The notes under the pieces were generated by a model. The model saw only the letters and a list, made by a program, of their open reading frames with translations, searched no databases and was not told the origin of the DNA. From a virus: 42,572 bases of DNA. Position 1 is the stretch's first letter, and every line of letters starts with the position of its first letter. The stretch lies in IMG/VR virus record IMGVR_UViG_3300045988_038154, positions 1 to 42,572 of that record. One strand, 5' to 3'. This document shows positions 7,094 through 20,919 of the stretch, piece by piece. The translations under genes and the position numbers were made by a program.

Positions 7094-7930
7094 CTATTCA
7101 CGGTTTAAAAAATCATCCAACGTTAGAACCTCATGTAGTTTTTTCTGTGATTTGCAATAATCACAATGCCCACATTTTTTAGGTTCTTCATTTCCGAGCG
7201 ATACTTGGTAGACTCTCGGAGCGTGCTCTGTGATGTAATTTAGCCCCTCTGCAAGCCATTCTTCAGTAAGTTCGATGATCTCCTTATCTGGTTGTTTTTC
7301 TTTCGAGACTGCCACGATAAACGGTTTATACGTTGGATAATCCATTTGTCGTAGGAGCTCTAAATAAGTTCCTAACTGGACATGGTATTGAAACCCTAGA
7401 ATATTATTGACTGCCGTCGGCACTTTGGCACGCAATTCCTCTGACCATTCCTTAGTCCAGATGGATTTCATGGTTTTCAAATCGACTACATAGCCTTTTG
7501 AAAAGTTGATGCTATCCAACTTACCCTTGAATGGCACGCCGGCGATAAAACCAGTAACAATCTTTTCTTTTTCGACCTTGTCACTTTTCTTACCGTGGTA
7601 TAAGTTGTTGAAAAGCGTGTCATCCTTTAGCGTTTCGATAACTTTTTCAGCGAGTTTGAAATCTGCTAGCAATCCATAAGGTTTACGGCTGGAAAACAAC
7701 GCTTTTTTGTTGTCTTCTTTGAATTTCTCGTGTGCTTCCTCACTCTCGAAATAGCTATGGACATAGTTTCCAAACAGTAGAGGTTTTTGATCTCGTTCGT
7801 CATCCCAAATACCATCATCGATAGCTTTAGCTCTAGCTTCACATTTCATGTATTCCTTGAAACGACTTACAGACATATAGGTTTTGTCAGAATAATAATT
7901 ATCATCCGTCAAGATTGTTAGTTCAGTCAT
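7094..7930 (-). CDS. PD-(D/E)XK exonuclease, Cas4/RecB-like, partner of RecT
   Basis: VVDLKT nuclease core, a C-terminal CGHCDYC cysteine cluster plus an N-terminal Cys, and adjacency to RecT. Confidence 0.75.
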
Positions 7931-18276: not shown

Positions 18277-19449
18277 ATGTGGGTAGAAGAATTACCAAAC
18301 GGAAAATATAAATATTTTGAGAGATACAAGGACACTTACACTGAGAAGTGGAAACGGGTATCTGTAACGCTTAACAGTGGGTCTAATCGAGCAAAGAAAG
18401 AGGCTCAACGCTTACTGGATGATAAGATAGCTGAGAAGATGGCTGGCTTAAACACTACCGATGCATCATTTAACGACGTGTTGCACGAATGGTGGGAATT
18501 CCACAAGAAAGGCATTCGAAGGACTTCGATTAGTTCCATGACCAGTAATGTCAGGTATGTCGAAGAGAATTTCGCTGTAGATGTCAAAATAGCAAACATT
18601 GATACACACTATATCCAACGCTTTATCAACGATGCCGATGTTCCACGTTCAATCCTTGAGCGTGTTAAATCTATTTTAAACCTTACCTTCGATTACGCTT
18701 GCACCGTTGGTTACATTCCTAGCAACCCTGCAAGACAAGCAAAACTTCCCAAGAAACAACAAACGATGGAAGATTACGACAAGATAAGAAATAAATTTCT
18801 AGAGATAGACACTGAACTACTTCCGCTACTTGCAGAATTACGAAAGCAAAAACGCACTTATAGAAATGCCATCCTTGCAGAGTTTCTCTTTGTCAGCGGT
18901 GCTCGAATCGGTGAAGCGGTAGCCCTTGAAACGTGCAATTACAGAAAAGAGGACGGCTACCTTGATATTTTTGGGACTCTTGATAGTGTCCAAGGCTACA
19001 AGAGGGCTAAGAAAGAACCACCTAAAACGCCAGCCGGCTACCGTAGCAATAAACTAACTAAACGTGAAATAGAATTGCTGGATGAAGCTATACAGATTCG
19101 TGATCTAAACAAGTCGTTATCAGACGATTGGGCGAACATGGATAGAGATTATATTTTTGTGACTGACAAGGGAGTGCCACTTCAACGGAACTCATTTAAC
19201 AATTCTATCCAAGCTGCTAACAAGAGACTGGATAAGCCGATTAATAAACCGATATCATCACATATCTTCAGACATACGCTGGTCAGCTATCTGGCTGAGA
19301 ATGGTGTCCCGTTAAAGGCTATCATGGATAGGGTTGGGCACGATGACAGTGATACCACAATGAAGATTTATACCCACGTAACCAACAAAATGAAGAATAA
19401 AGTGGTTGAAATCATTGATAACTTGCCCCTTTCGTGCCCCTCGAAATAA
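18277..19449 (+). CDS. int: Tyrosine integrase
   Basis: ARIGEA...HIFRHTLVSYLAENG...GHDDSDTTMKIYTHV (R..HxxR..Y catalytic signature). Confidence 0.95.
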   Translation: MWVEELPNGKYKYFERYKDTYTEKWKRVSVTLNSGSNRAKKEAQRLLDDKIAEKMAGLNTTDASFNDVLHEWWEFHKKGIRRTSISSMTSNVRYVEENFAVDVKIANIDTHYIQRFINDADVPRSILERVKSILNLTFDYACTVGYIPSNPARQAKLPKKQQTMEDYDKIRNKFLEIDTELLPLLAELRKQKRTYRNAILAEFLFVSGARIGEAVALETCNYRKEDGYLDIFGTLDSVQGYKRAKKEPPKTPAGYRSNKLTKREIELLDEAIQIRDLNKSLSDDWANMDRDYIFVTDKGVPLQRNSFNNSIQAANKRLDKPINKPISSHIFRHTLVSYLAENGVPLKAIMDRVGHDDSDTTMKIYTHVTNKMKNKVVEIIDNLPLSCPSK

Positions 19450-19497: not shown

Positions 19498-19787
19498 CTT
19501 TGAGTCTTATTTTACTGTGCGGGAAAGTTAATCGGTTTTTAGATAAGTATATAATAGGAAGAAAACCTATTAAATAAGGATATATGCGTGTAAGATATAG
19601 ACGGTAAAACTCACATAAAGTTACTAAAGTTTACACTTATTGCCCCTTATTTGCCCCCTTTTCATAAAAAAGACTTGGCAGCATGAGCTACCAAGCGGCA
19701 TGAAAAAACAAAAACATTGAACGTTAAAGTCCATATATAGTGTACCTCTATTTGAATTAAATGTCTAATGTTACATCAAGGAGACAC

Positions 19788-19811
19788 AAAAAGGCTAGGA
19801 TAACCCTAGTC
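19788..19811 (-). terminator. Terminator of the small-protein operon
   Basis: Minus-strand GACUAGG-GUUAU-CCUAGCC followed by UUUUUG; it overlaps the stop codon of the last ORF. Confidence 0.45.
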
Positions 19812-19988
19812 TTTTATCGTTCCCAGATTACAACGTCTTTCTGCGATAAGCTCCTCTAGTTCGTTCAAATCCGAACCCGTAGCATGATTTCTGATAAAGC
19901 TACGAGCGGACGACCTTTTAGAGAGATAATTTCTATGCTCTCTATTGTTTGCATTCCACTTCTTAGTGGCCTTTGCTTGTGCGTCCAT
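19806..19988 (-). CDS. Hypothetical basic 60-aa protein (third gene of the moron operon)
   Basis: KKWNANNREHRNYLSKRSSARSFIRNHATGSDLNELEELI; no family recognised. Confidence 0.6.
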   Translation of the reverse strand: MDAQAKATKKWNANNREHRNYLSKRSSARSFIRNHATGSDLNELEELIAERRCNLGTIKD

Positions 19989-19997
19989 GCGATCTAC

Positions 19998-20294
19998 TCA
20001 CTTTCCAAATCTAGCGACGAATAATTTATGATATAACTCAATGTCATCGTTAGTGACATCTAACAATTTGCCGTGAGATTTTTTAACATTCACGTATTTT
20101 TCAAGTTCTTCGACGTTACGCATGTTGCTGATGTCGTAGCCAGCTGTTAACAAACCGTACAACGCTTTGTGGATTTCTCGCAAATTATCATTTTCCAATT
20201 TTTTAGAAAGATTGAACATTTTGCTTGCTGTTGCAGAATTGTTTTTGATCTCGTCTGTGTATCGAGAACCTAAAATTGTTTGACCGTTTTTCAT
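19998..20294 (-). CDS. Hypothetical 98-aa protein (second gene of the moron operon)
   Basis: GAGGT RBS; no motif recognised. Confidence 0.65.
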   Translation of the reverse strand: MKNGQTILGSRYTDEIKNNSATASKMFNLSKKLENDNLREIHKALYGLLTAGYDISNMRNVEELEKYVNVKKSHGKLLDVTNDDIELYHKLFVARFGK

Positions 20295-20336
20295 TTTGTT
20301 TTACCTCGTTTTATTTTTTTATGCTACTTCTTTGAG

Positions 20337-20519
20337 TTATCCAATGAAGTCGATTAATTCTTCAAAAGGAACTTGCTCTAAATCTTCATAATCTGTGAAG
20401 TCTTTCATGTATCCTTTCAAATCTTCGAGAACTTTTTCTTCAGTAACTTCTTCGTCTCCATCATAAACGCTCTTGTACTCTTCGACTAATTGGTTGATTT
20501 GTGATTGTGTTAGTGCCAT
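20337..20519 (-). CDS. Highly acidic 60-aa protein (first gene of the moron operon)
   Basis: AAGGTGA RBS; by hand count it has 18 Asp/Glu against 4 Lys and no Arg. Confidence 0.65.
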   Translation of the reverse strand: MALTQSQINQLVEEYKSVYDGDEEVTEEKVLEDLKGYMKDFTDYEDLEQVPFEELIDFIG

Positions 20520-20572
20520 TTTGTTTCACCTTGAGAACTTCTTTTGTTCTCCCTTTCCTTATCTTCATTTAT

Positions 20573-20601
20573 ATTATAGTACATATACTATAAATTGTCA
20601 A
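20573..20601 (-). promoter_or_regulatory. Perfect consensus sigma-70 promoter TTGACA-17-TATAAT
   Basis: The minus strand reads TTGACAatttatagtatatgtacTATAAT. Confidence 0.8.
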
Positions 20602-20637
20602 CACTTTTGAGAAAGAAATTTAAGTTTTTTGCAAAAT

Positions 20638-20661
20638 AAAAAAACCCGACAAAAAGCCGGG
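20638..20661 (-). terminator. Intrinsic terminator (insulator upstream of the moron promoter)
   Basis: Minus-strand CCCGGC-UUUUU-GUCGGG followed by U7. Confidence 0.65.
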
Positions 20662-20740
20662 GACAGTTCGAGAATTTTCGTCGAAAGACGTCAAATATTC
20701 CAATGACTATAGTAGCACTTATAGTAGAGATTAGCAAATA

Positions 20741-20801
20741 CAAAAAAGAGCTATGAGATAACCTCGTAGCTCTTTGCCTATGATGGACTTATATTATACC
20801 A
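20741..20801 (-). ncRNA. Candidate ~45-nt small RNA: extended -10 TGGTATAAT followed by a terminator, with no ORF
   Basis: TGGTATAAT lies at 20801..20793. The hairpin AAGAGCUA-CGAGGUUAUCUCA-UAGCUCUU plus UUUUUG ends at about 20741. Confidence 0.35.
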
Positions 20802-20804
20802 AAT

Positions 20805-20832
20805 AAAAAAAGCCCCAGCAAATGCCAGGGCT
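20805..20832 (-). terminator. Terminator after the endolysin gene
   Basis: Minus-strand AGCCC..UGGCAUUUGCUG..GGGCU followed by U7. Confidence 0.6.
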
Positions 20833-20919
20833 TCGACCACTACTGCCATGATATCCCTATTGCAGTGTGAGGGGAGGTGATATACTCCTTTTCGTTTTTT
20901 TAGTTTGCGTGGTCTGTTA

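Follow-up and report, generated by a model that had tools for sequence, protein, structure and literature searches.

A 42,572-nt stretch of viral DNA (IMG/VR virus record IMGVR_UViG_3300045988_038154, referred to throughout as the window) carries on its minus strand an operon of three small genes, numbered here in the order in which they follow the promoter. The locus is read as an acr-aca13 operon, that is, an accessory anti-CRISPR cassette, about 0.87 kb long, in the lysin-to-attachment site (att) region of a temperate siphophage of the Streptococcus salivarius group, and a probability of roughly 0.88 is given to this reading. It is based on the homology of genes 2 and 3, on the co-variation of the operator with the regulator, on the presence or absence of the cassette among related phages and on the published functions of the families concerned. 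The original prediction, which had been made from the letters of the sequence, placed three minus-strand open reading frames (ORFs) behind the promoter, and all three were recovered at the positions given in the table below. Its general outline holds, in that an anti-CRISPR locus of accessory character, complete with a regulator, lies at the lysin/att end of a temperate phage of Firmicutes.

Genes 2 and 3 belong to characterised Acr and Aca families

In a PDB sequence search, residues 1-98 of gene 2, which are its full length, aligned with residues 1-101 of PDB 8YE9 chain B ('A25') with E=1.2e-44. Reference Acr and Aca sequences were taken from Table S1 of PMC8934645 for comparison. Gene 2 is identical to AcrIIA25.1 at 76 of 101 positions (75%) and to AcrIIA25 at 72 of 98 (73%). 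It is also 83% identical to orf50 of phage TP-778L, a gene that adjoins an annotated AcrIIA5. In PHROGs it falls in phrog_13146, where it is listed as 'unknown function'. The genomic context is of the same kind, with Aca13 encoded directly downstream in the window and homologues adjoining AcrIIA6 (P5641) and AcrIIA5 (TP-778L). Gene 2 is a member of the AcrIIA25 family by homology and is predicted to be a Cas9 inhibitor.

The 'A25' chain of 8YE9 is AcrIIA25.1; it and AcrIIA32 are type II-A anti-CRISPRs that were discovered in Streptococcus mobile elements by Song et al. (PMC8934645). Both AcrIIA25 and AcrIIA25.1 act against SpyCas9 and/or St3Cas9, whether in bacteria, in human cells or in vitro, and they block DNA binding as well as cleavage by Cas9 (PMC8934645). 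In the passage of PMC13089141 that cites Zheng et al. 2024, AcrIIA25.1 is described as binding the complex of Cas9 with single guide RNA (sgRNA) at the sgRNA nexus, on the Cas9 face opposite the DNA site, and as trapping an inactive conformation that prevents the changes needed for DNA binding. Expression of acrIIA25.1 from a prophage has been reported in S. tigurinus (bioRxiv 10.64898/2026.06.01.729453).

Gene 3 matched residues 90-139 of AcrIIA32 (PDB 8YE6 chain B, 'A32') with E=4.8e-14. Its closest reference is the Aca13 domain fused to AcrIIA31.1 of S. salivarius (50 of 57 positions identical, 88%), followed by the stand-alone Aca13 of S. equinus (32/50) and the C-terminal domain of AcrIIA32 (31/51). 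PHROGs places it in phrog_2277, again as 'unknown function', and Pfam, NCBIfam and PADLOC hold no models for any of the three operon proteins. The C-terminal domain of AcrIIA32 is Aca13, a repressor of a kind other than helix-turn-helix (HTH), whose dimers bind an inverted repeat (IR) between the -35 and -10 elements of acr promoters (PMC12282945). Alanine substitution of K92, W99, R107 or S111 of Aca13 abolished repression of a reporter, and R104 matters in the full-length protein (PMC12282945). Of the six residues with functional tests, gene 3 retains five, its W11, R16, E17, R19 and S23 corresponding to W99, R104, E105, R107 and S111. By this homology gene 3 is Aca13, the predicted repressor of the operon's own promoter, and the suggestion that the basic last product could be a regulator agrees with this.

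These assignments overturn two other statements of the original prediction. None of the three proteins was said to match a nameable family, which is wrong for two of them. The acidic first protein was proposed as the anti-CRISPR, and the documented Cas9-inhibitor family turned out to be that of the middle, 98-aa protein, which had been left uninterpreted.

Homologues of Aca13 with 55-60% identity were also seen in phages of Listeria, Lactobacillus and Clostridium, for example in Listeria phage LP-HM00113468 (L035, 1980-2186). In S. agalactiae phage Javan5 (L034, 597-767) a lone homologue lies between paratox and an abortive-infection (Abi) gene, and its putative promoter contains a different palindrome, TGATA-GTA-TATCA. 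No discussion of non-streptococcal or solitary copies was found in the Aca13 literature examined.

Promoter, operator and cassette structure

The perfect TTGACA-17-TATAAT promoter that had been predicted in front of the operon was confirmed. It is the single occurrence in the window, against 0.03 expected from shuffled sequences. Its frame, AAAAGTGTTGACA..., is common to about 40 related acr operons. Within it lies the putative Aca13 operator, an 18-bp near-palindrome that extends over the promoter spacer into the -10 element, of which it includes the first 4 nt, and that is likewise unique in the window.

The operator was compared in an alignment of 30 viral contigs with a homologue of gene 1. 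An operator of the TATAGTATATGTACTATA type is present in every Aca13-carrying locus of this alignment, and one locus (L025) has a perfect palindrome, TATAGTACATGTACTATA, at the operator position. Five loci have the same -35 element, leader and gene 1 with AcrIIA6 (confirmed with E=1.5e-103) replacing Aca13, and at these the palindrome TATCAT-NN-ATGATA stands at the same place. A near-identical operator is found in S. equinus phage Javan213 (L033), whose aca13 operon has different acr genes, and the Aca12-regulated AcrIIA25-AcrIIA5 operon of TP-778L has a different palindrome, TTGACATATGTCAA, in the same promoter frame. This co-variation of operator and regulator across loci is good comparative evidence for Aca13 acting at 20592-20575. 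In the published work the IR bound by Aca13 also lies between -35 and -10, and an 18-bp site was modelled (PMC12282945). From its position, its 18-bp length and the co-variation, we infer that the palindrome at 20592-20575 corresponds to the published Aca13-IR2.

The same frame, AAAAGTGTTGACA...TATAAT/TATACT, was seen in further Streptococcus acr loci: L032 (P5641), L036 (TP-778L), L016, L017, L020, L021, L027 and L033 (Javan213). The palindrome in the spacer matches the regulator in each type, being TATAGTAYATGTACTATA for Aca13, TATCAT-NN-ATGATA for the AcrIIA6 type, TTGACATATGTCAA for Aca12 and the published sequence for Aca11.

The leader of the operon contains a stem-loop directly upstream of the Shine-Dalgarno sequence of gene 1 (-8.5 kcal/mol, z = -2.9). 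The stem is preserved in all operons led by gene 1, with loops of 5 to 9 nt, with both arms shorter in L025 (GAGAC/GTCTC) and with a G.U pair in L004 and L020; it is missing from operons that are not led by gene 1. This hairpin of the 5'-untranslated region (UTR) may be an element of mRNA stability or translational control. An out-of-frame ORF of 35 aa in the same region (20568-20461) was rejected as a gene, since a stop interrupts it in sister loci. At the other end of the operon, the predicted hairpin and U-tract overlapping the last stop codon were confirmed at 19809-19795, and the same terminator hairpin follows aca13 in phage YMC-2011. A ribosome-binding junction, AGGT(A/G)AAACAAAATG, is common to the gene starts; in the window it stands at repeat D1 (20292-20325 and 20517-20550), and it was also seen in L032 and L033. 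Recurring across acr genes and species, this junction could serve as a recombination joint for the shuffling of cassettes.

Loci related to the window were collected through a conserved upstream anchor, the seed of the small unit B described in the last section. Among the 69 informative loci, the acr promoter is present at the site in 40 and the site is empty in 29. In one phage with an empty site (L048) the order is unit B - unit C - unit D - att, and alignment with the window leaves 20644-19774 as an insertion. The operon is a mobile cassette, present or absent as a whole at a fixed site. Across viral contigs the commonest layout is gene 1 - Aca13::AcrIIA31. Further layouts are gene 1 - AcrIIA25 - Aca13, as in the window; gene 1 - AcrIIA25 - Aca13::AcrIIA31, in the sister phages L002 and L005; gene 1 - Aca13; Aca13::AcrIIA31 alone; AcrIIA25 - Aca13; and layouts led by orf1 or of the AcrIIA6 type. 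The components that are shuffled are gene 1, AcrIIA25, Aca13, Aca13::AcrIIA31, AcrIIA6, orf1 and orf13.

The acrIIA25.1-aca11 operon of the Streptococcus sp. F0441 prophage (PMC8934645; PMC12658196) has a similar build. There too, an AcrIIA25-family gene precedes a small gene for an Aca repressor, and a TTGACA-17-nt-TATAxT promoter with an internal palindromic operator lies in a prophage accessory region. The two operons differ in the regulator, which is the non-HTH Aca13 in the window and the HTH protein Aca11 in F0441, and in the operator, which is the 18-bp TATAGTAYATGTACTATA in the window and the 24-bp AGTATATAACAAATGTTATATACT in F0441. The window has gene 1 as an extra first gene, and its AcrIIA25 homologue is only 75% identical. 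Known acr-aca13 loci are AcrIIA32, an Acr::Aca13 fusion, in S. uberis NZ01; Aca13 with AcrIIA32.1 in S. equinus; and Aca13::AcrIIA31.1 in S. salivarius (PMC8934645, PMC12282945). They share with the window the regulator family and the placement of the operator between -35 and -10. Unlike the fusions AcrIIA32 and Aca13::AcrIIA31.1, Aca13 of the window stands alone, without an AcrIIA31 or AcrIIA32 domain, and its partner is AcrIIA25, which was earlier described with Aca11 or without an Aca. No earlier description of AcrIIA25 paired with Aca13 was found in the literature examined on these acr loci.

In the lysin-integrase region of S. salivarius phage YMC-2011, the DNA that comprises the upstream small units, the promoter and gene 1 is 87% identical to the window, and promoter, operator and terminator are the same. 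Unlike in the window, gene 1 is there followed directly by aca13, without acrIIA25. That aca13 is unannotated in the YMC-2011 record (L001 2822-3019, minus strand; about 7210-7380 of the record); its product is 88% identical to gene 3, and it lies directly after Ssal_phage00009 ('hypothetical protein'), the homologue of gene 1.

A course of events can be proposed for the operon. Upon entry of the phage DNA, the consensus sigma-A promoter would fire immediately and give a burst of a single tricistronic mRNA, from which the AcrIIA25 homologue would neutralise the Cas9 ribonucleoprotein of the host. Aca13, as the last cistron translated, would build up, occupy the 18-bp palindrome overlapping the -10 element and throttle the promoter. 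This shut-off would also limit read-through toward the phage attachment site (attP) and the converging integrase gene. In the lysogen, low maintenance expression would protect the prophage from self-targeting.

Gene 1 and the alternative explanations

Gene 1 encodes an extremely acidic protein, as had been noted in the original prediction, with 18 D/E, 4 K and 0 R and a net charge of about -14. It is a real gene under purifying selection: the median ratio of nonsynonymous to synonymous substitution rates (dN/dS) is 0.13 among 18 distinct alleles, and the variable sites are distributed 17/12/41 over the three codon positions. An AlphaFold2 model of the product is a confident three-helix structure (predicted local distance difference test score, pLDDT, 87.9). 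A word-indexed search returned 233 protein clusters of closely related, unnamed homologues, with identities of 73% or more for the 120 listed. When 1.84 billion representative proteins were searched exhaustively with a profile, the 15 hits were essentially its own family or chimeric fragments of that family. No relatives were found by PDB sequence or profile search, and Foldseek gave no match below E 1 (best E 1.0 against PDB and 1.9 against BFVD).

Four candidate relationships were considered and dropped. Identity with paratox (Prx), a 60-aa protein at such a prophage end, received no Pfam or PDB support. A pairwise match to the N-terminus of AcrIIA31 (16/33) had an hhalign probability of 3.3%. 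A resemblance to Csm2 appeared in PADLOC (E=0.002), but no more than 5 of the 28 family members shared it and it was missing from the PDB profile search; it was regarded as noise. The similarity of the N-terminal 18 residues to the N-terminus of ribosomal protein uS15 (E about 0.2) was treated as chance.

Homologues of gene 1 are encoded in at least 30 viral contigs. Gene 1 is the first gene in acr operons of two regulator types, Aca13 and the AcrIIA6 type, and its presence is optional. Some operons have orf1 (111 aa; L043 and other orf1-led loci) in place of gene 1 as the first gene after the acr promoter, so that two unrelated uncharacterised proteins share this leader position. The likeliest role of gene 1 is that of an additional anti-defence protein, probably an anti-CRISPR with a target other than that of gene 2. 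The anti-defence role is suggested by its slot directly behind acr promoters and by its being shuffled in and out like known acr genes, and its optional presence, small size and acidity fit an anti-CRISPR or other anti-defence role.

Several points weigh against this view of gene 1 and of the operon as a whole. The role of gene 1 is argued by association with its neighbours, and it is at present a candidate. A homologue of gene 1 is found away from acr loci too, in the early region of a phage. None of SpyCas9, St1Cas9 and St3Cas9 was inhibited by orf1 or orf13, which stand first or as neighbours in operons of this kind (PMC8934645). At 73-75% identity the Cas9 specificity of the gene 2 homologue is uncertain, and AcrIIA25 and AcrIIA25.1 themselves differ in the strength of St3Cas9 inhibition (PMC8934645). 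In gene 3 the residue corresponding to K92 is Q4; this position varies in other Aca13 homologues, and gene 3 has lysines nearby. A second, overlapping AT-rich dyad (inverted repeat I6) is present at the operator region.

The homologue outside acr loci is a 62-aa protein (L028 2489-2677; also L030). It is encoded in an early-gene cluster of a phage, downstream of a C5 DNA methyltransferase gene and also near ORFs resembling TnpB of the IS200/IS605 type.

The alternatives concern mainly gene 1. The one that survives best, with a substantial chance that falls somewhat short of even, is that gene 1 has already been characterised as AcrIIA35, a St1Cas9-specific inhibitor, or as Cand1 or Cand3 of Song et al. 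2025, in which case the locus would be without novelty. That work screened the unknown genes that acr-aca13 promoters control in phages and prophages of Streptococcus; three were tested, of which one, Cand2, is AcrIIA35 (St1Cas9-specific) and two, Cand1 and Cand3, were negative on SpyCas9, St1Cas9 and St3Cas9 (PMC12282945). Gene 1 is the commonest unknown gene at the acr-aca13 promoter position in S. salivarius phages, and the same laboratory had earlier listed the S. salivarius Aca13::AcrIIA31.1 fusion, which is usually the next gene after gene 1. However, the main text of PMC12282945 gives no sequence or accession that connects its candidates with gene 1. Gene 1 is also missing from the 2022 candidate table (PMC8934645), strings of its peptide sequence found no match in a literature text search, and all database names for its family are 'hypothetical protein'.

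A more tentative proposal is that gene 1 founds a new and very narrow anti-CRISPR or anti-defence family with a distinct target and that, separately, the small units B, C and D flanking the cassette represent undescribed phage regulatory or anti-defence RNAs. Under this proposal gene 1 could be directed at Cas9 of another type or at type III-A or type I systems of S. salivarius, and the protein may act as a nucleic-acid mimic.

It is somewhat more doubtful that gene 1 is another kind of accessory protein, either an anti-restriction or anti-defence DNA mimic or a factor acting on the phage's own gene expression. Acr islands commonly mix anti-defence genes (PMC7648647); one gene 1 homologue lies beside the C5 DNA methyltransferase mentioned above, and the 5'-UTR hairpin is conserved and specific to gene 1. 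On the other hand, almost every context that was recovered has gene 1 immediately after an acr promoter and beside validated Cas9-inhibitor families. DNA mimicry had also been suggested in the original prediction. The extreme acidity is compatible with it in general; no relative in sequence or fold supports it, and nothing resembling Ocr, ArdA or another mimic fold was found for the protein in PDB.

A toxin-antitoxin or abortive-infection module, offered earlier as the main alternative, is very improbable: small genes that share an operon at a moron site, one product being acidic and another basic, would suit it, and phage Javan5 has an Abi gene near its Aca13 homologue, but genes 2 and 3 belong to experimentally characterised Acr and Aca families whose identities explain the locus, PADLOC gave no consistent hit beyond the Csm2 noise, and no toxin-antitoxin domains were found in Pfam or NCBIfam.

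Genome setting, flanking units and significance

The window holds the whole genome of a temperate siphophage, in attP (excised or permuted) configuration. The genes run from the terminase to the lysis genes on the minus strand, followed by the three-gene operon, the integrase and repressor on the plus strand and the early genes. The phage belongs with those of S. salivarius and S. thermophilus, and its nearest annotated record is that of YMC-2011 (NC_018285). The predicted location of the operon between the endolysin and the integrase is borne out by the gene positions. Its location at a prophage end is, in a window of attP form, an inference; host comGC lies directly after the lysin-att region in some related prophages, which supports that location once the phage is integrated. 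The related prophages L038, L055, L020, L021 and L027 are integrated at the 5' end of comGC, a competence pilin gene of the host, and the start of the ComGC ORF is there supplied or replaced by prophage-proximal sequence.

Coordinates of the operon, its control elements and its neighbours in the window
Feature	Position	Strand	Basis or remark
acr cassette, approximate extent	19774..20644	-	insertion relative to empty-site phage L048
acr promoter TTGACA-17-TATAAT (-35 20601-20596, -10 20578-20573)	20573..20601	-	12/12 consensus match
putative Aca13 operator, 18-bp near-palindrome TATAGTATATGTACTATA	20575..20592	-	17/18 positions fit dyad
5'-UTR stem-loop GAGAAC-N7-GTTCTC	20533..20551	-	directly upstream of gene 1 Shine-Dalgarno
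gene 1, 60 aa, pI 4.05, anti-CRISPR/anti-defence candidate	20337..20519	-	first gene of operon
gene 2, predicted AcrIIA25-family anti-CRISPR, 98 aa	19998..20294	-	PDB sequence match
gene 3, stand-alone Aca13, predicted repressor, 60 aa, pI 9.7	19806..19988	-	PDB sequence match
operon terminator CTAGGGTTATCCTAG + T-tract	19787..19809	-	overlaps gene 3 TAG stop
unit B: extended -10 TGGTATAAT, ~48-nt segment, seed TCCATCATAGGCAAAG, hairpin, T-run	20739..20801	-	conserved
unit C: TTGCTA-17-TACTAT promoter-like site, ~75-nt segment, terminator 20661-20645	20638..20737	-	conserved
unit D: TAGACA-17-TACACT promoter-like site, terminator 19696-19673	19665..19767	-	downstream of operon
endolysin	21639-20920	-	upstream of operon
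integrase	18277-19449	+	converges on operon from downstream

Three consecutive terminators had been predicted to insulate the operon from the lysis genes. They are present, those at 20834-20809 and 20661-20645 by terminator scan and the middle one (hairpin 20775-20745 and T-run) by eye and as inverted repeat I4, not by scan. They are not dedicated insulators and instead end separate small units. The spacer between lysin and promoter was examined in an alignment of 26 loci. The 3'-UTR of the lysin (20919-20809, minus strand) forms a hairpin with double compensatory substitutions (ACTGC...GCAGT versus ACCAC...GTGGT), followed by its terminator. About 170 records of S. thermophilus phages match the lysin-proximal end of the query (window about 20790-20918). 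The 16-nt seed of unit B, TCCATCATAGGCAAAG, is nearly invariant and was found in 118 viral stretches; no second site that could be its target is present within the phage. Unit C is conserved whether or not a phage has the acr operon, with compensatory variation in its terminator stem, and unit D directly follows unit C in phages without the operon. Some loci have extra related units and tandem TGCTATAAAA repeats. Units B, C and D each combine a promoter-like site, a short segment and a terminator, and are taken as separate small transcription units with putative RNA products.

In a recent preprint, viral sgRNAs (vsgRNAs) are reported directly upstream of acrIIA25.1 (bioRxiv 10.64898/2026.06.01.729453), and units B and C were therefore checked for likeness to sgRNAs. 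The window resembles the loci of the vsgRNAs and RNA anti-CRISPRs described there in having small RNA-like units with terminators upstream of an acrIIA25-family gene. However, unit B has about 48 nt as compared with about 89 nt for a vsgRNA, and, unlike the RNAs reported next to acr genes, the units of the window are found also in phages without the acr operon. Rfam gave no match to a tracrRNA family even at E<=10, unit B having a sub-threshold hit only. Comparison with the Streptococcus repeats and tracrRNAs tried as references gave nothing above shuffled sequences (lowest p about 0.04 in 16 tests). On these comparisons the units were rejected as vsgRNA, tracrRNA or solitary CRISPR repeats. 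The presence of conserved small RNA-like units beside acr islands is still worth attention, as RNA anti-CRISPRs are being found at exactly such positions.

The AcrIIA25 and Aca13 families are known already. Gene 1, with 60 aa and without known relatives, is a cheap and well-defined candidate for testing. The locus can be annotated directly with an acrIIA25 homologue, aca13 and a putative operator, where public records such as that of YMC-2011 leave the genes unnamed or uncalled. It documents a natural pairing of AcrIIA25 with a stand-alone Aca13, and it illustrates the modularity of these islands, in which a single promoter frame is combined with interchangeable operators that match the regulators Aca13, Aca12, Aca11 and the AcrIIA6 type.

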